Shown here: in pieces, positions 636 through 57,003 of the stretch
Layout of the letters: each line of letters begins with the position of its first letter
How positions within the stretch are numbered: the stretch's first letter is position 1
Assembly (NCBI GenBank): GCA_964538485.1
Contig: CAZIHJ010000001.1
Location: 13,899 to 77,898 of the forward strand
Direction: 5' to 3'
Origin: an uncultured Chitinophagales bacterium
Lineage (GTDB): Bacteria > Bacteroidota > Ignavibacteria > UBA10030 > UBA6906
DNA length: 64,000 nt
Made by a program: the position numbers and the translations under genes
Notes under the pieces: model-generated
Told to the model about the DNA's origin: nothing
Seen by the model: the letters and a program-made list of their open reading frames with translations, nothing else
Databases searched by the model: none

Positions 636-2414
636 TTACTTGAGCAAAACGGCCTTTTTAGTGGCAGAATACACGTTGCCGGATTTCGACACTGCTGTGA
701 GCCGGATGCTGTACACGCCGCTTGAGAGGTCTGGGGCCGACCAGAGGGACGTATGTGTCCCCGCTGAGACAGTTCCCTCGAATATCGTGGCAATTTTTCT
801 TCCTAGAATATCATACGCCGTCACTGCTATATCCGCCATTTGCGGAATGTGAAAACTTATCATTGTTGCAGGATTGAAGGGATTTGGGTAGTTCTGTTCG
901 AGACTGAACGTTGACGGTCGTTCGTCACCTCCAACAGATGTTGTTGTTGAATCTCGCACCTCAATGCGATAAGACCCTGAGGCGCCAACCAGGGGTTTGT
1001 TTACCTCTCTTGCAGATCCGGTAAACGCCTTGAGATAATACCACAGTGTCGTACCCGCTGGTTGTGCTGGAATATCAGTTGAGAATACGCCAGAACTGTC
1101 GGACAATACGGACGACTGAAACCCCGCAGTGGTATCGGTTCTCCATAATACAAACGCTGAATCAATTCCGCTTCGTGCTTTGATCCGTGCCTCGATATGA
1201 ATTGTTGCCGTATCGCTTGCAGAGGAGAGAGGCGCATGAGCAAAATGAACAGGTTCGCGTATTCCGATCTCCTTGGTGATGCAATGAATTGCTCCAAGTT
1301 GTCCAATTATGGAATTGCAATCGAAACCCTGGATTGTGTATCCGGGCATTGCTTCCACGTAAATGTCCAATGCCTGCTGATCGGTCGGGAGATTATAAAT
1401 AGGAACCAGAACAGTCTTGTTGATGATAACCGAATTGGTGTAAGTGAGATAGTTGGATCCGTTATCGGGATACCGGCCCTGCGCATCGGGCGGCATGGGT
1501 ATGCGTACAATTCTATAGGGACGGCCATAGGGTCCCGTCAGGGTCTCAAGGTAGTCCACAGTGTTCTCAATGACAACGTAGTCTGCGACATTTACAGGGT
1601 ACTGTCCTATCAAAATGGTCTCCTCGTCAAGGAGTTTCATATGCATATCGATATGATGAATCACATCGTATGGCAGCGGATCCATTGTGACGTAGGATGT
1701 CAGACCGCAGTATCGTTGCATCGAAGAGTCAATATCAGCTGAAGTCAGGTGTGGATTCTCATTGAGTATCAATTCTGATGAGAAGCCACGATTGAATCCA
1801 TCCACCATAAAATTACCACCAGTATGTATCACGCTGTCCGGCTGTTGCACCGTCTGGTAGAGTGGCAGATTCCAGCGTGCGGCAAGCGCAACCGGCACGA
1901 GATCGTCCTGCGGGCGCGGACGATTATAGCGAAAATCAAGGATGCCCATGGAATCAGTCAAAACATCGTAGACGGTCCATGGACCGTAGTCCCTGCACCA
2001 GATACTATTGGTGCTGATGGCAAGAAATTCCAGATTTGTTAACGGGATGTTTCGCCCAGTCAGATAAGCGATAATGTTGCTCGAATCAGACGTGGCGGGA
2101 CGGGTAAGTATCCATACAGTTCCTTCCTCCTGGGCAGCGTCAACAATTTGACTTAACAGCAGATTTTGAGTTCCGTACGCCCATCGCACAATGATCCCTT
2201 CAAGCTCTTCATACTCTGCCATCCCACGGACGGGCCGGGGCGGCGGGGTGGTCGAGATGGCTGAAGGAGGAATGTAAGTTGAATTCAACAGACGTTCATG
2301 GGAGGTTTCATAACGCGGTAAAGGATGTTGTTCCTGTTCCTGCCATTGGGCAACCCCTGAGCTGTATATCAGCGTTGCAACAATAGCGAGTGAGAATACT
2401 CGAAAACAACGCAT
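636..2414 (-). CDS. Peptidyl-arginine deiminase (Porphyromonas-type)/agmatine deiminase family enzyme with T9SS C-terminal sorting domain
   Basis: The 636..2606 ORF was trimmed to the internal ATG at 2414, which begins a signal peptide (MRCFRVFSLAIVATLIYSSGVAQ). Motifs IWCRDYGPW, HTGGNFMVDG and QLGAIHCITKEIG match the PAD_porph/agmatine deiminase fold, including the catalytic Cys near the C-terminus of the domain. C-terminus LEQNYPNPFNPATMISF... is the Por/T9SS sorting domain. Confidence 0.75.
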   Translation of the reverse strand: MRCFRVFSLAIVATLIYSSGVAQWQEQEQHPLPRYETSHERLLNSTYIPPSAISTTPPPRPVRGMAEYEELEGIIVRWAYGTQNLLLSQIVDAAQEEGTVWILTRPATSDSSNIIAYLTGRNIPLTNLEFLAISTNSIWCRDYGPWTVYDVLTDSMGILDFRYNRPRPQDDLVPVALAARWNLPLYQTVQQPDSVIHTGGNFMVDGFNRGFSSELILNENPHLTSADIDSSMQRYCGLTSYVTMDPLPYDVIHHIDMHMKLLDEETILIGQYPVNVADYVVIENTVDYLETLTGPYGRPYRIVRIPMPPDAQGRYPDNGSNYLTYTNSVIINKTVLVPIYNLPTDQQALDIYVEAMPGYTIQGFDCNSIIGQLGAIHCITKEIGIREPVHFAHAPLSSASDTATIHIEARIKARSGIDSAFVLWRTDTTAGFQSSVLSDSSGVFSTDIPAQPAGTTLWYYLKAFTGSAREVNKPLVGASGSYRIEVRDSTTTSVGGDERPSTFSLEQNYPNPFNPATMISFHIPQMADIAVTAYDILGRKIATIFEGTVSAGTHTSLWSAPDLSSGVYSIRLTAVSKSGNVYSATKKAVLLK

Positions 2415-2491
2415 TGCTGTGATCCTGTTTATGAAGGCCTGGGGTAATATATCTGACCATTCACGGAAAGTCAACGTAAAAGGTCGTGAGA

Positions 2492-5400
2492 CTATTTGAG
2501 TAGTATCATCTTCTGATGTGCCACAAAAGCCCTCCCTGACGCACCGGTTGCAACGATACGGTACGCATACACACCACTCGATGACATGATGTCGCCTGTG
2601 TGCCAAGCGACGTCGTTGCGCCCTGCCGCATACATCCCTTCTGCGAGCGTATGTATCTCCCTGCCGAGCATGTCATACACTTTGAGCGACACGCTGGCAG
2701 GTTCTGGCAGATCGAATGTTATTGTTGTGGAAGGGTTGAACGGATTAGGATAGTTCTGGTGTAACGCATAACTCACCGGAATGACCGTTGCATCGTCCTC
2801 TTCAGCATCCCCTGCAAGTGTCCCAGTCGACGGAGGAGGTACTGCGGTATTGAAGAAGTAATCAATGAGTCCGTTGAATATCGGTACAGGGCTTCCGGCG
2901 TTGCCGAAGAATGGGCCGATGGCGTTGACAACAAGTGGGTGCTGGAATGTCACAGATGTTGTCCAGTCAGTGCCGTTGTACGAATAACGTTGCGTCCAGG
3001 TGTTGCCGTCTCGGCGGACTCGCAGGTACAATGTGTTACTCGATGTAATCGTCAAGTCCTTGCGCGTTGTGGGAACCCCGTTGGCGAATGTGGCAGCGAA
3101 TGCCCGGATGCTCGTTCCGCCCCGGACAAAATCGAACCGGATGAAGTTTCCTTGATCCTGTTGCACTATGATTCCTTGAAGCTGGGACTTCATATCCATG
3201 ATTGACTGGAATCGCGCCTCGACCTCGAAATCGACGTTGTTGGCCGACTGCATAATGCGCGGTGCGTAATTTCCGGATGTCCATACATCATGAGAAATAC
3301 CTGCAGGTACAGTGACAGCAAGCTGGGTTCCTGTCAAGGAGAATGTTGCATCGCCGCGAGGATTAACAACAGTCCAAAGTCCCGTGTTTAGTGAAGGGGC
3401 GTTGAAATTGTCTGAAACAATCGTTGACGGTGTTCCACCGCTGATAAAGGATGCCCCGATGATCTTGTTGGTGTCCATTGAAATTGTCACCGGATTTGTA
3501 TTCCCCACAAGGTCACCGCTCCAATTCTGGAACTGCGCGCCAGACCCGGGGACAGCAGTCAAAGTCACAAGCTGTCCCTTCAGATAATCCGGCATTATGG
3601 GGTTCACAGTCACGTTGCCGTTACCGGTGGCATTGACAGCCAGTGTAAAGCGGGAATTGGTAACAGACCGTACCATAACATCACCAAAGCTGGCATCAAC
3701 ATGGTGAGCAACAAGAAGCAAACATCCTTGTTGCGGGTCCGTCGGCGCGGCTTGACCGATGAGGTCCCAATTGACCGGTTCGCTTAAGGAATCGGCCCAG
3801 ACCTTGATACTGTAGCGTGGGATTCCTCCTTGAAGTGTTTCCACACGTGCCTTAAAGATATATCGTACTCCTTTGACAAGCTTGCGACCGGTGTTGTCTG
3901 ATGCGAGCGTCTGAAGATTATTTCCTGCAATGACGAGATTTTCAGTCCCTGTACGATAACTATACCACGCCAGCGCACCCAGAGGCAAATACCCTGTCTT
4001 GGGCTGGAGGCCTGCTGTGCTTGCCGGACTGTTACTGTGACCCGGCCATCGAAGCAAGAATCCAACTCCCGCACCATTGCTTGGCGGCGCGTAGCCGGAG
4101 GAATCGATACGATTTATGGTGATTGGGACAGTCACCTCATAGTTTTTCCAGGAATGTTCACCGATGGCAACAAGACGGTCATAACCAATCTGAATTGGCC
4201 GGAGTGAACCCGTGGCGTCATCAATTCTCCATGATCCATCGAGAACCTGGGCGACGTTCGGAAGATTGCTTACGGCAGACCAGTTGATGTCGTAGTTTCC
4301 GGGCCAGGAGTTTCCTGCAACATATGTCACGCGCACTGTATCGAATGCAAGGACATTCACGCTGTCACGGGCACGAATAACAACCCGATTCAATCCGTTT
4401 GTAAGCGAGGTGTACGGGAGATCAACATTGAAATCGCCCTTTGCCACGAGTCGTCGTGTATCCGGTCCGCGGGACAGTGTCTTGAATGTTCCACCATTGA
4501 GCGAGTAGTGCAGTTCCTTAATACCCTTTGATGAAGTAACATTTCCCAGAATATTTATATCGGGTGTGGGATCGCCGATACTGCCAAAGGTTTGTTGGTT
4601 GCCGTACCAGATCTGGATAATAGTTCCACGCGTGACTCGCAATACTGCAGGTCCGCTTGTATCGCTTCCGACGTAGTTCGAGACGACACATCGGAAAACC
4701 GCTCCGCTATCTGAAATGACCGTTTGAGGCGTGGTGTATGTTGAACCGGTTGCACCCGGAATGGTCGCTCCATTTTTCTGCCATTGATAGGTAAGCGATC
4801 CCGTTCCGGTTGCTGAAACCGAGAATGATGCTGATTGTCCTTGCGCAACAATTTGTTGGCCAGGATTCGCTGTCACTGTTGGCGAGACTCCATGCACTGT
4901 CAGGACTGCGGCATCGCTTGTGTCGCTGCCAAGGGCGTTTGTTACCACACAGCGCATCATTGCACCACTATCAGCCATTGATGGAGTAAATGCGTATCCG
5001 GCTTCCACGGCACCTGCAACAGCGGTTCCGTTACGCAGCCATTGGAATTGCAAAGGAGCGGTACCATCCGCGGTAACACTAAAGCCAGTCTGTTGTCCGT
5101 CGTTGACATTCAGGTTAAGAGGTTGTGTGACTATCTCCGGCAATTCTCCGATAGTGAGTACACCAATCGCGCTGGTGTCCCTTCCGAGTGCGTTCGTGAC
5201 AATGCAGCGGAATGCCGCACCATCATCGTCCGGAATTGTTGGTGCCGTCAGAAGTGATGCACTTATTCCCTCCGGAATGTCATTCCCGTTTTTCTGCCAT
5301 TGATATTCAAAGGGAGGAGTGCCGATTGTCCCAACCATGAACGCGGCTGACTGACCAATCAGAACAACCCGGTTCAACGGGTTCTGAACGACAATCGGGG

Positions 5401-6199
5401 CAGAGGCCACGACACTCAATGTTGCAGATTCGCTTGTGTCGGCTCCAGCTATGTTGGTGATAATACAATGGAAGATCGCCCCACTATCACTGGCATTTGT
5501 TATTGGTATGTTCAGGGTTGCAGAATTGCCACCGACAATATCCACCCCATTCCGCACCCACACATACTGAAGAGGAAGTGTCCCCGTTGCCGAAACTGAG
5601 AACGTGACACCATCTCCTTCCGGGACAGATCTGCTTATCGGCTGGGTTGTAATGAGCGGGGGAAGAACTGTCGGTGCTGTCTTCTTCAATTCCACGTCAT
5701 CGATATAATACACCGTGCCGCTTGTCGCGTACGGTGCGAACCAGAATCGAACACGCGCGTCATTGACGACACCGGAAAACCCGCTTGTGGTAAACTCAAT
5801 GGTGTAGGTTTGCCACGAATTGGTAAGATTGACGAACCGATTGCTGAGGCCGTAGGTTGTATATGGAGAGGTTTGCTTCATGACCGTAAGCGAAACATCA
5901 CGGGCATTATTTGAATATGCCGAGAATGTGAGGGTGTAGCTCGTGTTTGGTTCCAATCGTAATCCTGATTGGTAGAGTTGCACATTCGAGCCGACCGAGT
6001 TCATGGTTAACCTCGCCGCACGCGCTCCGGTAAAGCCCGGCGACACAGATGCGTAGCTACCCGACGCGTTCGTATAGAACGTCCACGAACCCGTGCCAGT
6101 CTCAAAGCCCGGGTTTGTAAGGATGTTTCCCGTTTGAGCAGCCGCAGGGACCGAAAGGCTGGAGACAATCACGATGACATACAAAGAAACACGATTCAC
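2492..6199 (-). CDS. Large T9SS-secreted surface protein: N-terminal CBM4/9-like carbohydrate-binding module, five tandem Ig-like repeats, concanavalin/LamG-like domains, T9SS CTD
   Basis: 1235 aa with a signal peptide (MNRVSLYVIVIVSSLSVPAAAQ). The N-terminus NPGFETGTGSWTFY...YYIDDVEL resembles CBM_4_9. Five ~85-aa repeats of the pattern P..VTQP.s..V..G....FsV.AtGt.PL.YQW..NG..I.GA..at....SDSGA.FRCvvtN..G.dtS..A.LtV are Ig/I-set-like. C-terminus QNYPNPFNPSTTITFDLPE. Confidence 0.8.
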   Translation of the reverse strand: MNRVSLYVIVIVSSLSVPAAAQTGNILTNPGFETGTGSWTFYTNASGSYASVSPGFTGARAARLTMNSVGSNVQLYQSGLRLEPNTSYTLTFSAYSNNARDVSLTVMKQTSPYTTYGLSNRFVNLTNSWQTYTIEFTTSGFSGVVNDARVRFWFAPYATSGTVYYIDDVELKKTAPTVLPPLITTQPISRSVPEGDGVTFSVSATGTLPLQYVWVRNGVDIVGGNSATLNIPITNASDSGAIFHCIITNIAGADTSESATLSVVASAPIVVQNPLNRVVLIGQSAAFMVGTIGTPPFEYQWQKNGNDIPEGISASLLTAPTIPDDDGAAFRCIVTNALGRDTSAIGVLTIGELPEIVTQPLNLNVNDGQQTGFSVTADGTAPLQFQWLRNGTAVAGAVEAGYAFTPSMADSGAMMRCVVTNALGSDTSDAAVLTVHGVSPTVTANPGQQIVAQGQSASFSVSATGTGSLTYQWQKNGATIPGATGSTYTTPQTVISDSGAVFRCVVSNYVGSDTSGPAVLRVTRGTIIQIWYGNQQTFGSIGDPTPDINILGNVTSSKGIKELHYSLNGGTFKTLSRGPDTRRLVAKGDFNVDLPYTSLTNGLNRVVIRARDSVNVLAFDTVRVTYVAGNSWPGNYDINWSAVSNLPNVAQVLDGSWRIDDATGSLRPIQIGYDRLVAIGEHSWKNYEVTVPITINRIDSSGYAPPSNGAGVGFLLRWPGHSNSPASTAGLQPKTGYLPLGALAWYSYRTGTENLVIAGNNLQTLASDNTGRKLVKGVRYIFKARVETLQGGIPRYSIKVWADSLSEPVNWDLIGQAAPTDPQQGCLLLVAHHVDASFGDVMVRSVTNSRFTLAVNATGNGNVTVNPIMPDYLKGQLVTLTAVPGSGAQFQNWSGDLVGNTNPVTISMDTNKIIGASFISGGTPSTIVSDNFNAPSLNTGLWTVVNPRGDATFSLTGTQLAVTVPAGISHDVWTSGNYAPRIMQSANNVDFEVEARFQSIMDMKSQLQGIIVQQDQGNFIRFDFVRGGTSIRAFAATFANGVPTTRKDLTITSSNTLYLRVRRDGNTWTQRYSYNGTDWTTSVTFQHPLVVNAIGPFFGNAGSPVPIFNGLIDYFFNTAVPPPSTGTLAGDAEEDDATVIPVSYALHQNYPNPFNPSTTITFDLPEPASVSLKVYDMLGREIHTLAEGMYAAGRNDVAWHTGDIMSSSGVYAYRIVATGASGRAFVAHQKMILLK

Positions 6200-6483: not shown

Positions 6484-8601
6484 TCATTTCAGCAAGACCA
6501 TCTTCTTTGTGGCTGAGAATGATCCTATTGTCACTCTGTACAGATAGAGACCGCTTGCAACTTTTGCTCCGCTTGCATCGCTTCCTTCCCACGATACATT
6601 GTAGTTGCCCGGCTCGAGTTCTCTATCGACCATTGTCGTAATGAGTGTCCCCAATGTATTGAAGACTTCGAGCCTGACGTACCCTTTCTCCGGCAACGAG
6701 AAGCCGATCGTTGTTGTCGGGTTGAACGGGTTGGGGTAGTTTTGCTGCAGGACGAATTCCTGTGGAATGGTCTCGTCGATTTGTTTCACGTCTGTTGGGT
6801 ACCAGCCAAGTGCTTTTTGCAATAGTGCAACGGCGTATTTCGTATTGTGGACGCCATAACTTCCGTCGCTCTTGACAAAGTAATATGTCCAGATGCCCTG
6901 AACGAGGTCCGGACGGTTTGCGACTCGCGCAGAGTCGGCGGCAGTGACGGTGCTTCCACCGATTGGCTCGCCATCAGAACCGAGAGGCAGTCGGGCCTTG
7001 AGCACATCAAGCATCCCATGCACCTCGCTGACCACTCCTTCAACCGCGCCATCATGGTCATAGTCATACGCCGCTTGTATGTCGTTGAACTCCTCGATCT
7101 CGCCGTGGCAAGTAATACATGCCTCTACCTGATCGTGTGTGCCGCCGACGTTATCGATCATCGACATTTCATGATCCGAATGCACGCTGGAGCCGTTTAC
7201 CCGCTCTGCCATATGGCAGGTCACGCAGGTGTTCTCAACTTGCGAGTGTGTATTCCGGCCTGTGAGTGTCGCGTCGCCGAACTCGTAGGAGTTTCGGCCG
7301 AGCAACATATCCGCCTGATTACTGTGATGTGGTGTGAACCGTGCGCCAAAACCATAGTACGGCGGGGTGCTTTTGACCTTCTGGACATAACGTGATTTGT
7401 GGCAGTTCATACAGAGTTGACCTGTCCCACCGACTGTGGGGACAAAGCCGTTCTTCAGCGAATCCACTCTTACAGTCCTGAGCTGATGCTCGTTTGTTAT
7501 ACTATGCGGATCATGGCATGTGGTGCATGAAACGTTCTTGTTTCCGTCAGCTGCCACGCTATAGCCCGGCGCCGACTTGTTATTCGTCCACTTGACGAAA
7601 GAAGAACCACTGTGACAAGGGAAGCAGTTTGTATTTGCCGTGTGGCCTCCCTCTGCGAACGTTGAGTGTCCCGAAGCTTCCCAGTAACTGCCGAGCCGAT
7701 GTTTCTTTGGCGCATCATGGCATTGCATACAAACGCCGGCATCTGTGGTGACACCGATTTTTTCGCGAGCGCCCATGTGACTTCCGCCGGGCCCGTGGCA
7801 ACTTTCACAACCAATGCTTGCCACAGGCAACATTGATGTCGGCATTGCATGATAGATTGATGAATCACGGTATGGAATCCAATAGTCTCCACCGTAAAAA
7901 GGGAGCCCGGCAAACCACGTTGAATCCCAATTTGTTTGATGTGCAAGGTAACCGAAGTTCCCGTTGTCCGTAGTCGGCTCCCATCCCGTCGTATGGCATT
8001 TTATGCACCCACTCGCATAAGCACCCTTGCCGGTAAACGGATCGACCTCGACTTGTCCGGTGATGGCACGCGTAAACATCGTTGCATGCGGCGTTGTCTT
8101 CCATGCCGCGGTGCTTGTCGCGTGGCATGTAACGCACTTGATGACCCCGGGGTTTCCGCCTTCGACACCCGTATACGTGCTTGCATAAAGGGTGTCAAGT
8201 GCATTGATGCTGCCATTCGCAGAGACCCTGATAATGTACTGACCGATTTGATCCGGCATAAACCGGACGAATCCGTTGGACGGCGTATCAATCACCGCAG
8301 TTGAGTTCGCCGGCTTTGAGATAATAGACCACGCAAGGGATGTGACGTTCCCGGTGGTATCGGCAGAAAGGTACACCTTCATGTTCTGACCAACCACTCG
8401 CAAGCCCGTGGAAACAAAATATGGGCCCGAGGGTGCAGTATAATTCGGCGGACCTGATGAGCGCCGGCCTGGAGACATTGCCTCAATCTTGATCTTCACT
8501 GTCTGCGCAATGGCATCAAGCGATGTGCCTGCAAGCAGACTCAGGGCGAGCAACCCCAAACAGATTGAACCAATTCGTTTCATAAAAATGTTTCCTTTCA
8601 T
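6484..8601 (-). CDS. Secreted multiheme cytochrome c (9 CXXCH motifs) with T9SS C-terminal sorting domain
   Basis: ORF 6484..8727 trimmed to the ATG at 8601 or 8583 (MKGNIFMKRIGSICLGLLALSLLAGTSLDAIAQ signal peptide). CXXCH motifs: CVTCH, CIKCH, CESCH, CMQCH, CFPCH, CTTCH, CMNCH, CVTCH, CITCH. An N-terminal Ig/Fn3-like beta-rich region is present. C-terminus LQQNYPNPFNPTTTIGFSLPEKGYVRLEVFN... is a T9SS CTD. Confidence 0.8.
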   Translation of the reverse strand: MKGNIFMKRIGSICLGLLALSLLAGTSLDAIAQTVKIKIEAMSPGRRSSGPPNYTAPSGPYFVSTGLRVVGQNMKVYLSADTTGNVTSLAWSIISKPANSTAVIDTPSNGFVRFMPDQIGQYIIRVSANGSINALDTLYASTYTGVEGGNPGVIKCVTCHATSTAAWKTTPHATMFTRAITGQVEVDPFTGKGAYASGCIKCHTTGWEPTTDNGNFGYLAHQTNWDSTWFAGLPFYGGDYWIPYRDSSIYHAMPTSMLPVASIGCESCHGPGGSHMGAREKIGVTTDAGVCMQCHDAPKKHRLGSYWEASGHSTFAEGGHTANTNCFPCHSGSSFVKWTNNKSAPGYSVAADGNKNVSCTTCHDPHSITNEHQLRTVRVDSLKNGFVPTVGGTGQLCMNCHKSRYVQKVKSTPPYYGFGARFTPHHSNQADMLLGRNSYEFGDATLTGRNTHSQVENTCVTCHMAERVNGSSVHSDHEMSMIDNVGGTHDQVEACITCHGEIEEFNDIQAAYDYDHDGAVEGVVSEVHGMLDVLKARLPLGSDGEPIGGSTVTAADSARVANRPDLVQGIWTYYFVKSDGSYGVHNTKYAVALLQKALGWYPTDVKQIDETIPQEFVLQQNYPNPFNPTTTIGFSLPEKGYVRLEVFNTLGTLITTMVDRELEPGNYNVSWEGSDASGAKVASGLYLYRVTIGSFSATKKMVLLK

Positions 8602-9088
8602 CGATGATATTGAGCCGCGGTTGATAAACATCGGGCTGTGGGAAAAAATCAGTAAGAACGGCGGCGAAATGGGCGAACATTGGCGGTACTGATTAGATTT
8701 CGATTCGCCCGTGTTACGAAACAGCAACGTGCGTGCCGTTATTTGATTGAAGATTTGAGAATCCGAAATCCCGATTGCTTCCCCTCAGTTCTGTCGGAGA
8801 ATGAGCCTTTTGTGTTGCGGACGCGAAGGCGAAGTGCTTTACATGATGAGGACAGAATACCTGCCTGTTGAGACTGAGAAATACGGCTTCACAAATGAGA
8901 ATTGCGAGGAAGGAGGAGATTCTCAGATTGCGAACCGGCTTCAGGACAATTCTGTCTTGTATTCGTTTCTCAGAAACCATAGATTCACAAGAGAAGTCCA
9001 CCTTCAATCGAAGGACCAGGTTCTGGAAAATCACCAAGCACGGGGACTGTTGCAACGAAATCAACAACATACAACCACACTGGCACCA

Positions 9089-10513
9089 ATGACTTCTTTA
9101 TTGGATGCCGTTGCGGATCCGGCTTTTGTGCTCTCGCGCGCCGGAATTATCATTGCCGTGAATGAAGCAGCTGCCGAAGTGTGGAAGCAGTCGAAGCATA
9201 CTCTGGTTGGCCGTGACCTGGTATCTTTTCTGAAGCCACAATCGCGTGGCGGATATTCCATGGCCTTGGAGCGTTGCTTTGTCGAAAGACAAAGGCAATT
9301 CTGTACCGTCACTTTTGAGAAGCCGGAACTGAGCAATGATTTTATGATGTCGCTTGCGACGTTTTCCGCACCAGACAGTCCGGATGATATGTTCTGCCTG
9401 TCCATTGCTCGTGACGTTACCGAAGACGTACAAAAGGACATTGACCTTCTTCGATTTTCAAACGTTGCTCACTACACATTGAATCCGCTCGAAATCACTG
9501 ATATTCATGGACAGATTATCTATGTCAATCCCGCCTTCGAAAAGGCGAGCGGCTTTTCAAAAGAGGAGTTGATCGGAAGGGACCCGAACGTCTTTGGGAG
9601 CGGCAAACATCCTAAACGTTTCTGGCAGGAAATGTGGCAGACGATAACCTCCGGCAAGGTGTGGACCGGAGAAGTACAGAACAGGAAGAGAACTGGAGAA
9701 CCATTTCTTACGCATTTGCTTATTTCTCCCATTGTGGATCAGACCGGAAAAGTGGCGGGTTATTTCGGCATTCACCGGGACATCACAGAACAGCGACATC
9801 TTGAACACCAGCTCTTTCAGGCACAGAAGATGGAGAGTATCGGTACGCTTGCCGCGGGTATTGCACATGAAGTGGGCAACCCGCTCACATCAATTTCGTC
9901 CCTGGTGCAGGTGGTGCAGCGGACAACGCAGGAGGACTTTACCAAAGAGAAACTCGAACTGGTGAAGCATCAGGTGACGCGCATCTCGAAAATCATTCGT
10001 GATCTTGTCGACTTCTCGCGACCTTCGACGTACGAAGTGCAACTTACAGACATCAACAAGTGTGTTCGTCAGGCTATCGACATTGTCAAAGTTGGCAAGA
10101 AATCAAGGTCCATCCGTTTTGTTTTGAACCTTGATCCCACCGTTCCGTCGCTTCATCTCGTTCCGGATCAGGTGGAGCAAGTATTGATTAATATTCTGAT
10201 TAACGCTGTCGATGCTGTATCTGACGCGCAGCTTCCGGAACGAAAAGACGGATGCATCGAGGTCTCCTCGCGCGTCGAAGGAAAGAACCTCACGGTGATG
10301 ATTCAAGACAACGGAAAAGGAATGTCTGAGGAAGAAGTGGAAAAGATTTTTGAACCATTTTTTACAACCAAAGGAGTGGGAGAAGGAACGGGTTTGGGTC
10401 TCTGGGTCAGCTATGGTATTGTGAAGAGCTTCCACGGCCAGATTCAGGTAGAAAGCGAACCCGGTCGCGGTTCCTCCTTCAACGTTCTGCTCCCGATCCA
10501 TTCCGACTACTAA
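9089..10513 (+). CDS. PAS-domain sensor histidine kinase (cytoplasmic; NtrB/AtoS-like)
   Basis: Two PAS-like segments ([12 protein letters not shown]...; [36 protein letters not shown]), an H-box ([11 protein letters not shown]) and a HATPase_c (N-box LINAVDA; G-boxes DNGKGM and GTGLGL). The start is uncertain: the open frame begins at 8801, with an ATG also at 8843, but the first PAS domain starts right after the ATG at 9089. Confidence 0.75.
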
Positions 10514-10525
10514 ACTACTGGAGCC

Positions 10526-11884
10526 ATGGCACATCGCATTCTGGTTGTTGATGACGAGCAGATCATCCGGGAATCAATTTCCTATGTTCTGAAGAAGGAA
10601 GGTTACGAGGTCGAGGAGGCGGAAAACGGCAAGGTGGCTCTTGACAGGATTGCCGAACGATCCTTCAATGTGGTCATTACGGACATTGAAATGCCCGTGA
10701 TGAAAGGGATCGAGTTGCTGGATAAAGTCATGCAGCAGAGTCCCGAGACGATCGTCCTCATTATTACAGCGTACGGTTCTCTTGAAACGGCGATCGCTGC
10801 GCTACGGGCAGGAGCCGGTGATTACATCCTCAAGCCGCTGGAATTTGATGAGTTACTCATCAAACTCAGACGGTTGTTGGAGGCCCGTACGCTGACACTG
10901 GAGAATCAACTGTTGCGCCGGGAGATACAGAGAGAGTTTGACTCATCTCCCATCATCGGGAAGAGTGCAGCGATGAAGCGCGTCTTCGATACGATCATGA
11001 CCGTTGCAGGAACTGATTCGACGGTACTGATCACCGGCAAGAGTGGTACTGGAAAAGAGTTAGTGGCACGTGCTGTTCATTTCAACAGCAGGCGCCGTGA
11101 ACGTTCCATTGTTGCTGTGAATTGTGGCGCCATTCCCGAATCGCTGATTGAAAGCGAGCTCTTTGGCCACAAGCGTGGATCGTTTACGGGGGCAGTATCC
11201 GACAAGATCGGGTATTTCAAGGCGGCCGAGGGGGGGACATTGTTTCTTGACGAAGTCAGCGAGATGCCGGTGAACCTGCAGGTGAAGCTGTTGCGCGCGA
11301 TTGAACAGCGTGAGATCATTCCTGTTGGTACTTCCGTCCCCCAAAGTATTGATGCGAGGTTTGTGGCTTCGACCAATCGCGATTTAAAAAAGGAAGTGGA
11401 GGCGGGACGATTCCGGGAGGATTTGTACTATCGCCTCAATGTTGTGGAAGTACATCTGCCGCCGCTGAGCGAGCGCAAAGATGACATCCCGTTGTTGGCT
11501 GAACACTTTATCGCCAAGTACCGGACAGAACTTCGGAAGGATGTCAAAGGAATCGACAGCGGGGTTATGCGGGCACTCCTCGGTCATGTTTGGAAGGGTG
11601 AGGTGCGCGAACTGAGCAATATCATCGAACGCGCGGTGATCTTCTGCAAAGGCGATTTTGTTACGATGAACGATCTTCCTGAATTTTTTCGCGGCGCTCC
11701 CGAGATAGACCTTTCCGATGACAATAAGTCGCTGCAGCACGCCATGAACGAACTCGAGAAAGTCTACATCGAGCGTGTTCTGCGGAAACATAATTTTGAC
11801 AAGGAGCACACCGCAACCGCACTTGGCATCAGTCTTCCCACACTCTATCGTCGGATTAAGGAACTGGGCATCCCGCACGAGTAG
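10526..11884 (+). CDS. Sigma-54-dependent response regulator (NtrC/AtoC family: REC + AAA+ sigma54-interaction + Fis-type HTH)
   Basis: REC domain (ILVVDDE...DIEMP...LKP), Walker A GKSGTGKE, GAFTGA-equivalent GSFTGA, ESELFGH, and a C-terminal HTH (TALGISLPTLYRRIKELGI). Adjacent to the kinase, so the two form a two-component pair. Confidence 0.9.
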   Translation: MAHRILVVDDEQIIRESISYVLKKEGYEVEEAENGKVALDRIAERSFNVVITDIEMPVMKGIELLDKVMQQSPETIVLIITAYGSLETAIAALRAGAGDYILKPLEFDELLIKLRRLLEARTLTLENQLLRREIQREFDSSPIIGKSAAMKRVFDTIMTVAGTDSTVLITGKSGTGKELVARAVHFNSRRRERSIVAVNCGAIPESLIESELFGHKRGSFTGAVSDKIGYFKAAEGGTLFLDEVSEMPVNLQVKLLRAIEQREIIPVGTSVPQSIDARFVASTNRDLKKEVEAGRFREDLYYRLNVVEVHLPPLSERKDDIPLLAEHFIAKYRTELRKDVKGIDSGVMRALLGHVWKGEVRELSNIIERAVIFCKGDFVTMNDLPEFFRGAPEIDLSDDNKSLQHAMNELEKVYIERVLRKHNFDKEHTATALGISLPTLYRRIKELGIPHE

Positions 11885-13055: not shown

Positions 13056-13805
13056 ATGGAAAACGTTACGATGACAGTAGTCGCCGACCGGAGCCCATAC
13101 GGGAGAATGGAGATTCAGAAGTTTCTCCACAGGAACTTTGTTCGCGGGATGATCATCTCCATTCTCCTGCATGCAGTGGTAGTTGGCTCCTACTATTCTG
13201 CACTCGTTCTTGGAGAAGATGACGATAATATTCCGACGATGAAAGTACGTATTCTGAAGTACAGTGATCTCGGTCCGCCTCCCTCCATTTCACAAGCACC
13301 GCTGCCACCTGCAATGGGAGTGCAAGCACCTGTGAAGCCCTCGGTGGGTGTTCCGGTTCCGGTTCCGGATGCCGAGGTGAACCCTGAGCAGACTTTTGCC
13401 ACGCAGCAAGAACTGAGCGCAACTCCGTCCCCGGTGACTGAGGGTTTAAGTAGTGAAGATGGCATTCAGGTGACGCAGGATATTACAATAGAGGATGATC
13501 CGGACATTGATGAGTTTGTTCCATATGAAAAGGGTCCCGTGGTTGTCAAGAACGTAGTCCCGAAGTATCCTGAAATGGCGCTTCGTGCTGGTCTCGAGGG
13601 CACGGTGTGGGTGAAAGTTCTTGTGGATAAGGATGGGAAGCCCAAAAAGGCCGTCGTCCTGAAGTCTGCTGCAGAGATCTTGAATGATGCGGCGTTGGAA
13701 GCGGCCATGCAGTTTGTTTTTACTCCGGCCGTCATGAACAGCGGCGCTGTGCGTGTGTGGGTGGCGATACCGTTCAAATTTCAGATTAATGAAAGCCCAA
13801 GCTAA
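13056..13805 (+). CDS. TonB family energy-transducer protein
   Basis: N-terminal TM helix (MIISILLHAVVVGSYY), a Pro-rich spacer (GPPPSISQAPLPPAMGVQAPVKPSVGVPVPVP) and a C-terminal TonB_C motif (YPEMALRAGLEGTVWVKVLVDKDGKP...VWVAIPFKF). Confidence 0.75.
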   Translation: MENVTMTVVADRSPYGRMEIQKFLHRNFVRGMIISILLHAVVVGSYYSALVLGEDDDNIPTMKVRILKYSDLGPPPSISQAPLPPAMGVQAPVKPSVGVPVPVPDAEVNPEQTFATQQELSATPSPVTEGLSSEDGIQVTQDITIEDDPDIDEFVPYEKGPVVVKNVVPKYPEMALRAGLEGTVWVKVLVDKDGKPKKAVVLKSAAEILNDAALEAAMQFVFTPAVMNSGAVRVWVAIPFKFQINESPS

Positions 13806-29935: not shown

Positions 29936-32338
29936 TTGTTCCACCACTTTCGTATTGGAGACTGTTTGCTCTCATATGTGCAAGAAAAAAGCTGCGGTGA
30001 GTTTGATATAGACCAGGAATGCGGGACGAAGAGGAAGAAGATCAATGTTGCGGGAATTGTCGCTCTGTGTATTCTGGCGACAACGTATGCTTCTCCCGTT
30101 GAAGCACAGGTGACGTTGGCTGGTCAGGTGGTTGATGAAGAGACGCACCAACCGATTGAGAATGTGAGTGTTCTGCTCCTGGAAACAGGGCGCCGGAAAT
30201 ACACGAATACACAAGGACGCTTCGCGTTCGAGAATCTTGCCGCCGGCCAGTACGCAGTAGCAGTGCATCACATTGGCTACGCCGACGTTGAGTGTATGGT
30301 CGTCGTTCGGGAGAAGATCGACAGCATCATTATCCTCCTGCGCTCCTCCATCAACCAATCCGCTGAAGTACTCGTCCGGGGAACGCGTGCACTTTCATCA
30401 TTGAAAAAGTCCTCCTTTCCCATCGATGTTTTAATGAGTGATCGCCTTACTCAGCACTCCCCAACATCAGTCTCTGATGCGCTCAAGAATATTCCGGGGC
30501 TTTCCCTCGTCCGTGACGGCGTTTGGGCCACAACGGTTTCCATCCGCGGGATGGGCCGTTCAAATATCGTTACTCTCGTGGACAACACCAGAATCGAAAC
30601 TTCCAATGATATTGCGGGCGGACTCTCGCTGCTCAATGTTCAGGATATTGAGAGAGTGGAGACGATGAAATCTCCCGGATCGGTCCTTTTTGGATCCGGA
30701 GCCCTTGGAGGTGCGGTTCATGTGATGATGAAACGGCCGTCGTTCAGCGACCAGCCCGGAATGGCCGTCGAAGTATCCGGGGGGTTCACGAGTGTCGATA
30801 ACGGGCTCTCCCAATATCTTGCCATTGAGTCCTCGACTGATCAATACGCCGTCAGACTGAGTGGAGGATATCGACGAGCCGGGAACACCATGACGCCTGA
30901 TGGGATGCTTCTGAATTCACAGTATCGTGATTTCAGTCTGTCAGATGCGCTGGCTGTAAAGACACTTGGTGAACAATCGCTGCTTCTGAACTACCAGCGG
31001 TCGCAAGCCGAGGACACCGGTCTTCCCGGTGGATCGCCAATTTCACCAACAGCGAACGCCAGGTACACACTCGCACGACGTGAACGATTCGGGTTGGAGT
31101 ATATCCTGCCGAATATGTCGCCGGGGACTCCGCTTCTCACGTTCAGACTTTCCCGACAGACGATTACCCGTAATGTTGAGATCATTCAGAATCCGGTGTT
31201 GACTATAACACCGCATGCGGTACATACCACCATATCCGGCCAGATTGAATCCCAAGTTCTCCCCGACGTCAATGACCGCCTCACGGTCGGCATTGAGCTC
31301 TGGCGCAGGGAACTGGATAGCCAGCGTGAGAGAATCGATCGGAGCAACGGTCAAATCACAGGTGAGCGCCCTGTGCCGTTGTCCACCAATCTTAATGCGG
31401 GAGTGTATGCGCAGAACGAATGGCGTAGCTCCTCCGACAACATGGTGATAATGTTGGGAGCTCGCTATGATCGAGCCCGTGTCGCCAATGATGAGACAAT
31501 GAATCCCGCCTATGTTGTTGCCGGTGGAATTCTGCAGACCGCACCGTCCGACCAGAAACTGTTGTGGAAGAAATCAACCGCACACGATGAGTCGTGGAGC
31601 ATGAATGCCGGCCTCCAGTACGCCGTCAGTCCATTGGTTGATGCATCGCTGCTGGTCGCAACGGCATTCCGGTCGCCTTCACTCGAAGAGCGCTTTCAGT
31701 TCATTGATCTCGGGAACACCGTTCGCATCGGAGATCCAACCCTGCAACCTGAACGAAGCCTCTGCATCAACACCGGAGTGGGCTTGCACACGCAAGCCCT
31801 GAAAATCCGCACAGACATGTTCTGGACCCGGCTCTCGAATCTCATCACAGAAATTCCCGGAGTATACGAGGGTCGACCGGCGTACGTGAAAACGAATATT
31901 GGAACAGCCAGTGTGTACGGGTGTGAGATCTCGACCGAACTCGCTCTGACAACATATATTGTTTTGAAGTCGTCGGCTGCCTACGTGCGGGGCCGCGACA
32001 CTCGTAATCATACTGATCTTCCGCAGATTCCACCCATGAACGGCCGTGTGGAAGTTAACGGCCACTTCGAGTCTCTGGGAAATCTGCATATCGCGTGGTC
32101 GGGCGCGGTGACGCAGAATAGTCTTGCTCCTGCCGAGCAGCGCACACCGGGCTATGCGGTTATAGATGTGGATATCGCGAGTAGGCCGCTGACGATCGGA
32201 CCATTGTCGCTCATCGTCCGATCCGGGATACAGAATGTTTTCAATCGGGCGTACAGGAATCATCTCTCCACCCTTCGAGATGTCATCAAGTCCGAGCCGG
32301 GTAGGAATTTCTTTTTGTGTGCGAAGGTCGTCCTATGA
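29936..32338 (+). CDS. TonB-dependent outer-membrane receptor with N-terminal carboxypeptidase-regulatory-like domain
   Basis: A CarbopepD_reg-like beta-sandwich (VTLAGQVVDEETHQPIENVSVLLLETGRRKYTNTQGRFAF), a plug region (PGLSLVRDG...IRGMG), and a long barrel with a C-terminal aromatic-rich strand. The exact start is uncertain: the open frame has no internal ATG before the signal peptide. Confidence 0.8.
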   Translation: MFHHFRIGDCLLSYVQEKSCGEFDIDQECGTKRKKINVAGIVALCILATTYASPVEAQVTLAGQVVDEETHQPIENVSVLLLETGRRKYTNTQGRFAFENLAAGQYAVAVHHIGYADVECMVVVREKIDSIIILLRSSINQSAEVLVRGTRALSSLKKSSFPIDVLMSDRLTQHSPTSVSDALKNIPGLSLVRDGVWATTVSIRGMGRSNIVTLVDNTRIETSNDIAGGLSLLNVQDIERVETMKSPGSVLFGSGALGGAVHVMMKRPSFSDQPGMAVEVSGGFTSVDNGLSQYLAIESSTDQYAVRLSGGYRRAGNTMTPDGMLLNSQYRDFSLSDALAVKTLGEQSLLLNYQRSQAEDTGLPGGSPISPTANARYTLARRERFGLEYILPNMSPGTPLLTFRLSRQTITRNVEIIQNPVLTITPHAVHTTISGQIESQVLPDVNDRLTVGIELWRRELDSQRERIDRSNGQITGERPVPLSTNLNAGVYAQNEWRSSSDNMVIMLGARYDRARVANDETMNPAYVVAGGILQTAPSDQKLLWKKSTAHDESWSMNAGLQYAVSPLVDASLLVATAFRSPSLEERFQFIDLGNTVRIGDPTLQPERSLCINTGVGLHTQALKIRTDMFWTRLSNLITEIPGVYEGRPAYVKTNIGTASVYGCEISTELALTTYIVLKSSAAYVRGRDTRNHTDLPQIPPMNGRVEVNGHFESLGNLHIAWSGAVTQNSLAPAEQRTPGYAVIDVDIASRPLTIGPLSLIVRSGIQNVFNRAYRNHLSTLRDVIKSEPGRNFFLCAKVVL

Positions 32339-50550: not shown

Positions 50551-51120
50551 TTACGAAAAGGGATTTCTATTGTGCTTTGCTTGTTCCAGGAGACTGGAGC
50601 AATAGGCACAAAAGCTATGACTTTTCATATCGAGTTCTTCCACATACGACGCTGCATGCATGACGCATGAATGCTGTGAGCAGTGCACGAGGCCCAGCGA
50701 GTGTCCGAGCTCATGAGTTGCTACTTTTTGCAAACGTTCCCGGACAAGGAGTGTATTTGACGGAAGTCCGTACAGCTCATTGCGGAATCGGTGATATGAT
50801 ACAACGGCAACATTCCCGCCCAGCGGGGCCTCGCCGAACACATATGTGAGTATGGGTATATACAAGTCATACCCTGTCACTCCGACGAGTTGCACCCCAT
50901 TGTCTGCGTGCCGCGGTTTTGCGCTGTTGAGTTGAGCCAGGAAATGCAGAATAGCGGTAGAATTGTATTGCCCCCGCTGCACGTCGTAGAAACGATCAAT
51001 GGCAAAGCGGTCCGGACAAATTCTTACCGGGACGCCGAACGTTTCGTGCAACGTCGAGTCCAAACCATCAAATACACCGGGGTCAACCTCTGCCAGCGGT
51101 TGTACCTCAATTGCCGTCAT
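50551..51120 (-). CDS. Archaemetzincin-family zinc metallopeptidase
   Basis: HELGHSLGLVHC (HExxHxxGxxH) followed by Cys-rich CSQHSCVMH...CAYC, characteristic of AmzA. Confidence 0.75.
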   Translation of the reverse strand: MTAIEVQPLAEVDPGVFDGLDSTLHETFGVPVRICPDRFAIDRFYDVQRGQYNSTAILHFLAQLNSAKPRHADNGVQLVGVTGYDLYIPILTYVFGEAPLGGNVAVVSYHRFRNELYGLPSNTLLVRERLQKVATHELGHSLGLVHCSQHSCVMHAASYVEELDMKSHSFCAYCSSLLEQAKHNRNPFS

Positions 51121-52459
51121 TGCGCTTTAAACCGTACTTCTGAATCTTGTGATAGAGCGTTACCCGGTCAATGTCAAGAATTGTGGCTGCGCGGCTTACA
51201 TTCCATCCTGTTTCGGCGAGAACCTCTTTGATATACTTGTGCTCCACATCTTCAAGTGTCTTCCTGCCATTGATTCCGACTACAGATGTTCTCAATGGAA
51301 GATGGTCCTTTTCAATTGTCGATCCGACACTCACCACAACAGCACGCTCGATTGCATTCTCCAACTCACGCACATTTCCCGGCCATTCATACCCCTTTAG
51401 TTCGAGCATGGCTTCACGCGAAAACCCCTCGATCCTCTTGTTCATGGCACGCGAATATTTATCAAGGAAATGATGGGCGAGTTTTGCAATATCTCCCTTC
51501 CGGCTACGGAGGGGAGGGATATGAATTGGAAAGACATTCACACGGTAAAAGAGATCTTCCCGGAACGTCCCGTCCTTAACCGCTTGCTCAAGGTCTTTGT
51601 TCGTTGCACAAATCACCCTGAAATCCGACGTGAGCACATCGCTTCCACCGACTCGTGTGAACTGCTTTGTCTCAATGACGCGGAGCAAGTCCATTTGCGT
51701 CTTTGGGTCAATGTTGCCGATTTCATCAAGGAACAATGTCCCTCCGTCGGCCATCTCGACTTTTCCCTTCCTCCGGTACTGCGCACCTGTAAATGCCCCC
51801 TTTTCGTGGCCGAAGAGTTCACTCTCCAGCAATGTCTCAGTCATCGCGCCACAGTTTACCGTGACGAGAGAAAAGAACTTTCGTTGACTGGCATTGTGAA
51901 TGGCCCGTGCTACCAGCTCCTTGCCTGTGCCGCTCTCACCGCGAATCATGACCGTGGTGTCCGCGACGGCAACGGTCTTCACAAGTTTCAAAACGTTGAG
52001 AATTTCAGGCGATTCTCCCACAATCTCATCCCCGCTGGTGAGTTCGCTGACTGCATCTTTCAACCTCTGATTTTCCTTCAGCAGTTCCTGTTCCTTGAGG
52101 ATCTTCTCCACCAGATGATCAAGGTAATCGGGGTCAATGGGTTTGGTGATGTAGTCGTACGCACCATCCTTGAGGGATTTCACGGCGGTATCCACCGCAG
52201 CAAACGCCGTGATAATGATAACGGCGATATGTTTGTTGGTCTCCTTTACACGATGCAACAGCTCGATCCCATCCATACCAGGCATCCGGATGTCGACAAA
52301 CATGATATTCCAACGATTCAATTGCAGTTTTCTTAGTGCGGCTGCGGCATTCTCCGCCACGTCAACACGGTACCCCTCTTCGGCAAACCACTTTGATAGT
52401 GATTCCCTCACAATCAACTCATCGTCCACGACGAGAATCCCGATCTCATTGTTGTTCAT
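51107..52459 (-). CDS. Sigma-54-dependent response regulator (NtrC family)
   Basis: REC (ILVVDDE...DIRMPGMDG), GESGTGKE, GAFTGA, and a Fis-type HTH at the C-terminus. Confidence 0.9.
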   Translation of the reverse strand: MNNNEIGILVVDDELIVRESLSKWFAEEGYRVDVAENAAAALRKLQLNRWNIMFVDIRMPGMDGIELLHRVKETNKHIAVIIITAFAAVDTAVKSLKDGAYDYITKPIDPDYLDHLVEKILKEQELLKENQRLKDAVSELTSGDEIVGESPEILNVLKLVKTVAVADTTVMIRGESGTGKELVARAIHNASQRKFFSLVTVNCGAMTETLLESELFGHEKGAFTGAQYRRKGKVEMADGGTLFLDEIGNIDPKTQMDLLRVIETKQFTRVGGSDVLTSDFRVICATNKDLEQAVKDGTFREDLFYRVNVFPIHIPPLRSRKGDIAKLAHHFLDKYSRAMNKRIEGFSREAMLELKGYEWPGNVRELENAIERAVVVSVGSTIEKDHLPLRTSVVGINGRKTLEDVEHKYIKEVLAETGWNVSRAATILDIDRVTLYHKIQKYGLKRNDGN

Positions 52460-55502: not shown

Positions 55503-56281
55503 CTTGTGTTAGTATTTGCTTGATCGTCTTTTTTGCGCAACTCCTCGGCTTCGAACCTCGCTACTTCTGTTCGACGTGCGGTGATCCAATGAATGCCGAA
55601 GAGTACCACGCTCGCTGCAACCGTGTACTTCGGAATTTGTGAGAGCACGCGCCACGAGAGATTGGGAATCGGCTCATTTGGAATGTTCATCGGGAAACCG
55701 AGCTTCTCAAACGGTATGGCAGAGATGTACAGGACGGAAGTTCCCCCGGCCTCTTTCAGTCCATAGATGTAGTTCACATACTGTCCGGGATTCTCGTCGA
55801 TGCGTTTTCTTGCTTCCGTGATCATCTCATCCCGATCACCGAAGGTTGTCGCTCCGAACTGGCACGCTTCAGCGCATGCTGTTGGCTGACCTGCAGTCAC
55901 GCGCTCATAGCACATCTTGCACTTCTGGACTCTTGGCGCAAGACTGCTCCATTCATAGCGTGGGATCTCAAATGGACATGCCTGCATACAGTACCGGCAT
56001 CCGATGCACTTCGACTCATCGTAGACAACGGCACCGGTTTCTGTCTTAGTGAACGCTCCCACGAGACAGGCAGAAACACACGTCGGCTCGTTACAGTGCA
56101 TACACAGTTTGCGCACATGGACTTCGTCATTCTGGAAGCTTTTCAACACGGTGTATCGGGTTGAGGAGAGCTCCTGCCCATCCTCCTGGGGAAGACCGTT
56201 TGTTTCTGCGCAGGCACGTGTGCATTCGCCACACCCCACACACTTGGTGATATCGATAAGCAACGCTTTTGACGTACTCAT
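55499..56281 (-). CDS. NrfC/PsrB/HybA-like 4x[4Fe-4S] ferredoxin subunit with C-terminal TM anchor
   Basis: CVGCGECTRAC, CMHCNEPTCVSAC, CIGCRYCMQACP and CKMC...C clusters, plus a C-terminal hydrophobic helix. Confidence 0.85.
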   Translation of the reverse strand: MSTSKALLIDITKCVGCGECTRACAETNGLPQEDGQELSSTRYTVLKSFQNDEVHVRKLCMHCNEPTCVSACLVGAFTKTETGAVVYDESKCIGCRYCMQACPFEIPRYEWSSLAPRVQKCKMCYERVTAGQPTACAEACQFGATTFGDRDEMITEARKRIDENPGQYVNYIYGLKEAGGTSVLYISAIPFEKLGFPMNIPNEPIPNLSWRVLSQIPKYTVAASVVLFGIHWITARRTEVARFEAEELRKKDDQANTNTR

Positions 56282-56991: not shown

Positions 56992-57003
56992 GGTAGTTCT
57001 CCT

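Follow-up and report, generated by a model that had tools for sequence, protein, structure and literature searches.

A nonaheme c-type cytochrome with a C-terminal type IX secretion sorting domain in an uncultured member of the Ignavibacteria

The stretch of DNA considered here (64,000 nucleotides; positions 13,899 to 77,898 of contig CAZIHJ010000001.1, assembly GCA_964538485.1; hereafter the window) comes from an uncultured bacterium which is named as a member of the Chitinophagales and is placed among the Ignavibacteria in the GTDB lineage. On its minus strand, it carries a gene for a c-type cytochrome with nine heme-binding motifs and a C-terminal sorting domain (CTD) of the type IX secretion system, abbreviated T9SS. 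The combination had been pointed out in the original prediction, which was made from the sequence alone, and the observation of a nonaheme cytochrome with a T9SS sorting domain is confirmed.

The longest open reading frame (ORF) on the minus strand spans 6484–8727, with the stop codon at 6484–6486. The original prediction had assigned the span 6484–8601 to the gene. Its stop codon is correct, but the start codon at 8601 is probably not used, and the ATG at 8583 (MKRIGS...) is the likelier true start because homologues begin at MKR and because a conserved GAAAGGAA is found 8 nucleotides upstream of it. This GAAAGGAA is kept in the closest relative, which is encoded at locus L081. Residue numbers given below nevertheless refer to the translation from 8601, which has 705 residues. 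Structural statements refer to an AlphaFold2 (AF2) model computed from a 117-sequence alignment (mean predicted local distance difference test, pLDDT, 91; predicted TM-score, pTM, 0.80). An earlier AF2 model, computed from 32 sequences (pLDDT 59), left the heme core unmodelled and was set aside. The gene and its subregions are as follows.

6484–8583, minus strand: gene for the nonaheme cytochrome with T9SS CTD (ORF listing, CXXCH motifs, homologue starts)
8503–8583, minus strand: Sec-type signal peptide, residues 7–33, with predicted cleavage at MKRIGSICLGLLALSLLAGTSLDAIA/QT (inspection of the sequence)
8167–8502, minus strand: N-terminal PKD-like beta-sandwich, residues ~34–145 (AF2 strands 69–141, pLDDT >90)
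7087–8166, minus strand: nonaheme core, residues ~146–505 (CXXCH motifs, OcwA homology, Pfam)
6802–7086, minus strand: NrfA/OcwA-like C-terminal helical region, residues 506–600 (AF2 helices, Pfam, OcwA alignment)
6487–6744, minus strand: T9SS type A sorting domain, residues 620–705 (TIGR04183, conservation, Foldseek)

From its N-terminus, the protein is thus arranged as signal peptide, PKD-like beta-sandwich, nonaheme core, three long helices, short linker, and seven-strand CTD. The signal peptide has a basic N-terminus, a hydrophobic core, and an AxA site, as judged by inspection, and AF2 predicts a helix for residues 5–31. The cysteine which it contains (Cys14) is not conserved among the homologues and hence does not represent a lipobox. 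No Pfam match was obtained for residues ~34–145 of the query, but the same region in the relative P0202 matches PKD (PF00801) above the cutoff and PKD_4 (PF18911) just under it. The helices which follow the heme core (523–537, 564–579, and 587–598; pLDDT ~90–97) are predicted to form a three-helix bundle.

The assignment as a nine-heme c-type cytochrome holds, as is evident from the signal peptide and from the motifs counted in the translation. There are exactly nine CXXCH motifs, which start at residues 156, 199, 265, 291, 326, 359, 397, 459, and 495, and no CXXCK motif occurs in the 705-residue translation. These motifs contain 18 of the 19 cysteines, the remaining one being located in the signal peptide. 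Given typical frequencies of cysteine and histidine, we estimate that ~0.001 CXXCH motifs would be expected by chance in a protein of this length. Among 117 homologues, the second cysteine and the histidine of the nine motifs are invariant, save for C202 and H203, which are nearly so (at least 90%). C156 and C265 are also only nearly invariant (at least 90%).

Nine conserved histidines outside of the motifs (H172, H275, H301, H312, H366, H425, H452, H477, and H585) are candidate distal ligands. H366 is replaced by methionine in three sequences of the 32-sequence alignment, which is the pattern expected of an axial ligand. Three methionines (M432, M464, and M481) are invariant in this alignment and are further candidate ligands. 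In the heme core, the Pfam families Cytochrome_C7, Paired_CXXCH_1, and Cytochrome_C554 are matched.

A separate observation concerns the first heme motif (residues 156–160, nucleotides 8122–8136), where the spacing of the cysteines differs among the 117 orthologues: C-x2-CH is found in 58, C-x1-CH in 26, C-x5-CH in 17, and C-x3-CH in 14, while spacings of x4 and x7 occur once each. Such variation at one orthologous heme site, CXCH included, is unusual.

The C-terminus (QNYPNPFNPTTTIGFSLPE...KKMVLLK) matches the hidden Markov model (HMM) TIGR04183 (Por_Secre_tail) over residues 622–702 with 33.2 bits (cutoff 23, E 3.7e-8), and the model match is thus significant. Across the 117 sequences, N621, P623, N624, P625, F626, N627, P628, T630, G651, G665, and G684 are invariant, and Y686, K700, M701, and K705 are conserved to at least 90%. 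In P. gingivalis, key positions of the CTD are a glycine in the beta3–beta4 loop and a C-terminal motif (PMC11285876). Their counterparts in the query are the invariant G651 and K700/K705, which are among the residues conserved to at least 90%. Conservation of the CTD is on a par with that of the heme core (mean column identity 0.65 vs. 0.63), which argues for selection on the tag.

AF2 predicts a seven-strand Ig-like beta-sandwich for the CTD (strands within 630–703, pLDDT ~80–90). Foldseek retrieved solved CTD structures with this fold: PorU (6za2, E 2.9e-4), RemZ (8gl8_D, TMt 0.63), RemA (8gl6_D, TMt 0.65), and PorZ (5m11). The structures 8gl8_D and 8gl6_D represent the CTDs of RemZ and RemA bound to the translocon. 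The CTD of RgpB (7pq4) was also matched, but only with the first AF2 model. As expected for this fold, FlgD and generic Ig-like domains were among the matches as well, and in Pfam the FlgD_ig model is matched by the same C-terminal domain with 28.5 bits (cutoff 27). The type IX sorting domain that had been predicted from sequence has withstood closer inspection, since its motifs are invariant or nearly so in more than 100 homologues and its fold matches solved CTDs. Judged by sequence and modelled fold, the protein carries a genuine T9SS type A sorting domain.

The most closely related protein of known structure is OcwA (6I5B), with E 1e-5 in phmmer and E 2.8e-16 when the family profile was used in hmmsearch. 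OcwA (TherJR_2595) from Thermincola potens JR is a nonaheme terminal reductase at the cell surface which reduces iron oxides and electrodes and, in addition, nitrite and hydroxylamine (PMC6703420). The match is colinear from heme 1 to the C-terminal helices, and the helices were aligned to OcwA chain residues 379–493. Both proteins have nine CXXCH motifs in the same order, the motifs CHGPG...H, CHM, and DGS.GVHN, and the C-terminal helices. Both have a core of the NrfA/c554 type rather than of the MtrC type, and for the query we propose the same extracellular location and role. The sequence similarity is remote and is limited to motifs. OcwA alone has a beta-sheet insertion (residues 75–156) between hemes 1 and 2, whereas the T9SS CTD and the N-terminal PKD-like domain are restricted to the query; the host of OcwA is a monoderm. 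The fact that the heme core is homologous to a characterized terminal reductase of the cell surface supports an extracellular redox role. OcwA itself has been noted to fall within a subclade whose nonahemes come from Gram-negative bacteria (PMC7829351).

Other known proteins are less closely related. NrfA shows remote homology over hemes 5–9 and the C-terminal helices (profile E 6e-8), and the Pfam family Cytochrom_C552 (PF02335) is matched by residues 450–598. Identity with NrfA was rejected, as CXXCK is absent and the scores with NrfA-family models remain far under the cutoffs; moreover, the query has nine hemes and extra domains. The second-best relative in the PDB is 6QVM, annotated as "multiheme cytochrome cf" (profile E 1.3e-10, query residues 250–594), which we take to be OmhA of Carboxydothermus ferrireducens. 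OmhA is related to OcwA, has 11 hemes, and is upregulated on ferrihydrite (PMC7829351). It differs from the query by its Gram-positive host and by having no T9SS CTD.

MtrC and OmcA from Shewanella can be regarded as functional analogues, as they are matured in the periplasm, are exported in the folded state, and act as terminal reductases. They are lipoproteins which are exported by type II secretion and dock on the MtrAB porin-cytochrome complex, whereas the query has no lipobox, a T9SS tag, and no adjacent porin. The Pfam family PF22113 is matched partially (45 bits). That the query is itself an MtrC/OmcA protein was rejected based on the TIGR03507 score (25.5 vs. a cutoff of 209.3), the presence of nine rather than ten hemes, and the absence of a lipobox cysteine.

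With respect to export, the protein resembles established T9SS cargo, such as RgpB, PPAD, and HBP35 from P. gingivalis and RemA from F. johnsoniae, which also combine a Sec signal with a CTD. The known cargo comprises proteases, glycosidases, adhesins, deiminases, and a protein which binds hemin non-covalently, but none with covalently bound cofactors or with a role in respiratory electron transfer. HBP35 is a heme-related cargo, to judge from a reference listed in PMC10202324.

A word-indexed protein search resulted in 1330 matches. Nearly all of the best 120 are full-length (~660–770 residues), they are 44–100% identical to the query, and almost all match PF18962. The few which have been named are proteins from metagenome-assembled genomes of Bacteroidota or Ignavibacteria, and N[YF]PNPFNP occurs in the tail of 129 of 130 full-length homologues. 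Names assigned to homologues include "cytochrome c3 family", "T9SS type A sorting domain-containing", "multiheme c-type cytochrome", and "nitrite reductase c552", so that automatic annotation in databases already reveals the combination of domains. In some records, the full name is "ammonia-forming cytochrome c nitrite reductase subunit c552" or "FlgD immunoglobulin-like domain containing protein". These two names are probably misleading, the nitrite reductase name being a probable over-annotation, given that the query lacks CXXCK and that the FlgD-like part corresponds to the T9SS CTD.

When the heme core alone was used in a filter-free search, 240 clusters (at 50% identity) were found with E<=1e-30 and 881 with E<=1e-10. 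A CTD is present at the end of 69 of the 124 full-length representatives among the best 148 clusters. Relatives without it include P0137, P0148, P0151, P0156, P0185, P0189, P0204, and P0229. Of ten non-CTD representatives that were scanned, four have bacterial TSP3 repeats, which bind calcium, and end in ...F[FY]RV..P. Other non-CTD relatives end in a W.LY-like motif. In other phyla, such ends may serve for sorting or anchoring in place of the CTD. The association of the nonaheme core with differing C-terminal modules fits a common extracellular module with lineage-specific anchors, and the version with CTD appears to belong to bacteria of the Fibrobacteres-Chlorobi-Bacteroidetes (FCB) group which have a T9SS. 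Some of the relatives that lack a CTD are tandem multi-module proteins with 1000–1950 residues and 15–24 hemes.

The cultured Ignavibacterium Stygiobacter electus 09-Me has a full-length homologue (715 residues, nine CXXCH motifs, 31% identity, BLASTP E 1e-96) which scores 43.7 bits with TIGR04183. Further family members were encountered when contigs were scanned with the CTD pattern PNPFNP[TS]TxI and ORFs were reconstructed at 80 loci. At 75 of these, the reconstructed ORF that ends at the match has no CXXCH, and the reconstruction missed L003. Full-length family members were detected by tblastn at L001–L004, L003 being a 49% match.

When the CTD HMM was applied to all ORFs of the window, only three CTDs were found, those of the cytochrome and of two tandem genes downstream of it. 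The neighboring features and a more distant cytochrome cluster are as follows.

2492–6199, minus strand: T9SS cargo with CBM4_9, four Ig domains, a ConA-like domain, and CTD (Pfam/NCBIfam)
636–2606, minus strand: Porphyromonas-type peptidylarginine/agmatine deiminase with CTD (PF04371, E 2e-42)
8801–10513, plus strand: PAS histidine kinase, divergent from the cytochrome gene (Pfam)
10526–11884, plus strand: sigma-54-dependent (NtrC-type) response regulator, divergent (Pfam)
8724–8738, minus strand: -24/-12 promoter-like element of the sigma-54 type, CGGCACGCACGTTGC (consensus match)
58090–62691, plus strand: fusion of a 13-CXXCH region with a cytochrome b, c554-like tetraheme protein, and NrfH/NapC-like protein with six CXXCH (motif and domain scans)

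The protein encoded at 2492–6199 has 1235 residues and also contains an InlB B-repeat-like domain, and its ConA-like domain is of the GH43_C2/ConA-like kind; the HMM scan revealed no recognizable catalytic domain in it. The product of 636–2606 has the same architecture as PPAD, the cargo from P. gingivalis, but is from an environmental host of the FCB group. As listed, the start of this ORF overlaps the upstream gene, and the real start is thus probably internal.

The PAS kinase and the sigma-54 regulator are candidate regulators of the cytochrome gene. The same pair is divergently encoded upstream of the orthologue at L081, which is 84% identical. The promoter-like element CGGCACGCACGTTGC has one mismatch to TGGCAC-N5-TTGC, is located ~140 nucleotides 5' of the start codon, and lies within the best-conserved intergenic block common to the window and L081. 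The element is conserved in L081, at positions 9862–9875. A second pair, consisting of a sigma-54 activator and a HAMP kinase, is encoded at 51107–54110 beside the distant cytochrome cluster.

This cluster of three membrane or periplasmic multiheme cytochromes is a candidate for an upstream electron-transfer module, 50 kb from the cytochrome gene. Its first protein (58090–60330; 746 residues) has 13 CXXCH motifs and a C-terminal cytochrome b (Ni_hydr_CYTB/FdnI-like) and resembles the quinol oxidases CbcL, MtrH, and MtoC, which have this architecture (PMC6295460). The c554-like tetraheme protein has 180 residues and the NrfH/NapC-like protein has 505 residues and six CXXCH motifs. Close by (54282–57726, minus strand) are genes for an HmcC/NrfD-like membrane subunit and an HmcB-like 4Fe-4S subunit. 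The Hmc pair is followed by two GcvH-like proteins (lipoyl/biotinyl carrier fold) of ~240 residues with extended N-termini, which is an odd partnership. The window also codes for PFOR, an [FeFe]-hydrogenase with a NuoF-like partner, HemN, and phosphotransacetylase/malic enzyme. This predicted repertoire is that of an anaerobe with a multiheme respiratory chain. A TonB-C protein is encoded at 13056–13805 and a TonB-dependent receptor at 29936–32338. No gene for cytochrome maturation was found within the 64-kb window. Neither tRNA nor Rfam features were detected in it, and its base composition is unremarkable.

Three of the related loci, including that of S. electus, have a different arrangement (L001 5143–9774, L083 3989–9543, and L086 4440–9544). 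There, the orthologue adjoins a cysS operon which contains two or three unannotated small proteins and an outer-membrane barrel of the FadL/Toluene_X type with 481–486 residues. The two barrels which were scanned, those of L001 and L083, show sub-threshold matches to the PorV/PorQ and BamG families. Neither the window nor the four other loci show this arrangement.

We propose that the protein is an OcwA-like nine-heme c-type cytochrome which serves as T9SS cargo for extracellular electron transfer, and we assign this reading a probability of roughly 55%. According to this proposal, the signal peptide (residues 7–33) would direct the precursor across the inner membrane via Sec. In the periplasm, the cytochrome c maturation system would attach the nine hemes covalently, and folding would take place. 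The type A CTD would then be recognized by the T9SS (PorV and the SprA/Sov translocon), and the folded holo-protein would cross the outer membrane; SprA is known to form a 36-strand barrel (PMC10202324). The sortase PorU would remove the CTD, and the mature protein, consisting of PKD-like domain, nonaheme core, and helical region, would be tethered via anionic lipopolysaccharide or released. Outside of the cell, the branched heme chain could hand respiratory electrons to acceptors unable to enter it, for example minerals with Fe(III) or Mn(IV), humics, electrodes, or partner cells, and small soluble oxyanions might be reduced as well, as they are by OcwA. The PAS kinase and the sigma-54 activator encoded next to the gene would probably control its expression.

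The proposal is based on what has been computed, namely the architecture, the homologies, and the finding that the fusion is both conserved and widely distributed. From these, we infer each step of transport, the location at the surface, the acceptor, and the direction in which electrons flow. Heme attachment via Ccm in the source organism, as assumed in the original prediction, is plausible by analogy: Melioribacter has CcmF, which makes System I plausible for the group. The presence of a T9SS can be deduced from the three tagged genes, from the published observation that the distribution of CTD proteins tracks that of the T9SS core genes (PMC10202324), and from reports that a T9SS may occur in Ignavibacteriota (PMC10202324, PMC11285876). 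Iron reduction has been reported for members of the Ignavibacteria, which become enriched on anodes and have many multiheme cytochromes (PMC7399161, PMC11495043).

Several points weigh against this proposal. No T9SS core gene (sprA, porV, porU, gldKLMN) occurs within the 64-kb window, and no T9SS gene is adjacent to the cytochrome gene here or in seven related loci. Likewise, there is no adjacent porin-cytochrome or other conduit across the outer membrane, neither here nor in these seven loci, which leaves the electron supply to a surface protein unexplained and is the main gap. OmbB-like porin-cytochrome complexes have been reported in Ignavibacteria genomes (PMC7399161). Apart from the regulator pair in common with L081, the neighborhood differs in every locus, and because it is not conserved for the family, the context provides no functional clue. 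The activity of OcwA on nitrite and hydroxylamine implies that the homology does not fix the substrate. PF18962 scores 26.0 bits in the query and thus misses its cutoff (27) by 1 bit.

The substrate is the point on which the most serious alternative differs, according to which the protein is a T9SS-exported enzyme for soluble substrates (nitrite, hydroxylamine, sulfite, or similar), of the NrfA/OcwA type and with one or two open hemes. In OcwA, hemes 2 and 5 are penta-coordinate and are flanked by His-His motifs, while heme 9 has His/Met ligation (PMC6703420), and it is this protein which reduces nitrite and hydroxylamine. In the query, H301 (conserved in 30 of 32 sequences) and H425 (32 of 32) align to OcwA HH281/282 and HH380/381, respectively. 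The Cytochrom_C552 match and the homologues named as nitrite reductase c552 point in the same direction. However, the second histidine is not conserved in the query family, so that each pocket has a single conserved histidine rather than a pair (position 426 is glycine or tyrosine in 29 of 32 sequences). With nine conserved non-motif histidines for nine hemes, all hemes could be bis-His ligated. In addition, the CXXCK active-site motif is absent and the NrfA-type models remain far under their cutoffs. There is also no obvious need to place such a site outside of the outer membrane, and its electron supply would still be required. We thus consider a dedicated enzyme for soluble substrates to be unlikely.

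A second alternative retains the surface location but assigns the protein to iron acquisition, as a ferric reductase which brings Fe(III) into solution and thereby provides Fe(II) for uptake via FeoAB or TonB-dependent systems. At L081, a cluster of Fur, FeoA, FeoB, and a TonB-dependent receptor is indeed found 2.8 kb downstream of the orthologue, past four genes, and the window has the TonB-C protein and the TonB-dependent receptor listed above. A Fur/Feo neighborhood is, however, absent from the window and from the six other loci examined, nine hemes are a costly investment under iron starvation, and regulation is predicted to depend on a PAS kinase and a sigma-54 activator rather than on Fur. 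A role in iron acquisition is therefore quite improbable.

We regard it as similarly improbable that electrons flow in the opposite direction, with the surface cytochrome taking them up from Fe(II) or minerals, from a cathode, or from a syntrophic partner. Multiheme chains are reversible, as exemplified by the electrochemistry of OcwA between +100 and -450 mV (PMC6703420), and proteins of the CbcL/MtoC type occur in iron reducers and iron oxidizers alike (PMC6295460). On the other hand, the gene set of the window (PFOR, [FeFe]-hydrogenase, phosphotransacetylase/malic enzyme) is that of a fermentative anaerobic heterotroph, and cultured Ignavibacteria have been described as Fe(III) reducers.

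It is highly improbable that the CTD is a generic Ig/FlgD-like beta-sandwich which is not used by a T9SS, the cytochrome being periplasmic or attached to the inner face of the outer membrane: while FlgD_ig passes its cutoff and PF18962 does not, Foldseek retrieves FlgD and other Ig-like domains, and T9SS genes are missing from the window, this is countered by the TIGR04183 score well over the cutoff, by the extreme C-terminal position with a K-x-x-x-x-K ending, by the invariant or nearly invariant NYPNPFNP, loop Gly651, G684-x-Y686, and K700/K705, and by the two downstream genes, which share the tag and code for classic kinds of T9SS cargo, including a PPAD-like deiminase.

Returning to the proposed surface cytochrome, we found no paper that links the T9SS or its CTD to multiheme cytochromes, but subscription journals were not covered by the search and some cases may be buried in long lists. 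In a 2023 review of T9SS effectors, the word cytochrome does not occur (PMC10202324). In a 2024 survey, numerous multiheme cytochromes of Bacteroidota, with Ignavibacteria among them, were predicted to be secreted but were not tied to the T9SS (PMC11495043). Extracellular cytochromes are not discussed in the multi-omics paper on Melioribacter, and a search of the full-text literature for "Stygiobacter" returned nothing. The route had been called uncommon in the original prediction. This is appropriate insofar as it is undescribed in the literature searched, but the architecture itself is abundant in metagenomes of the FCB group.

The data suggest a multiheme terminal reductase of the cell surface which is targeted by a different secretion system and which is undescribed in the literature searched. 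We consider the finding to be of moderate value because the fusion is abundant, conserved, and testable in a cultured organism; S. electus 09-Me, as a cultured carrier, makes the hypothesis directly testable. If the proposal is correct, the range of T9SS cargo would extend from hydrolases and adhesins to respiratory, cofactor-loaded proteins. The occurrence of the same heme module with differing export and anchor modules across phyla bears on how extracellular electron transfer has spread between envelope types. For FCB genomes, a CTD combined with multiple CXXCH motifs could be used as a simple marker to predict surface cytochromes. A broader view, to which we give slightly less than even odds, is that the T9SS is the general route by which Ignavibacteria and related FCB bacteria place multiheme cytochromes on their surface, where removal of the CTD and tethering to anionic lipopolysaccharide would yield a covalently anchored redox coat. 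This would represent a third architecture for extracellular electron transfer, beside that of Proteobacteria, which use type II secretion and porin-cytochrome complexes, and that of Firmicutes, which have cell-wall cytochromes. It would also be the first case in which a T9SS moves cargo with covalently bound cofactors. Ignavibacteria and other Bacteroidota, which are repeatedly enriched on anodes and in iron-reducing systems, code for many multiheme cytochromes predicted to be extracellular. How these reach the cell surface has so far not been addressed, and the fusion described here offers a concrete and testable answer.

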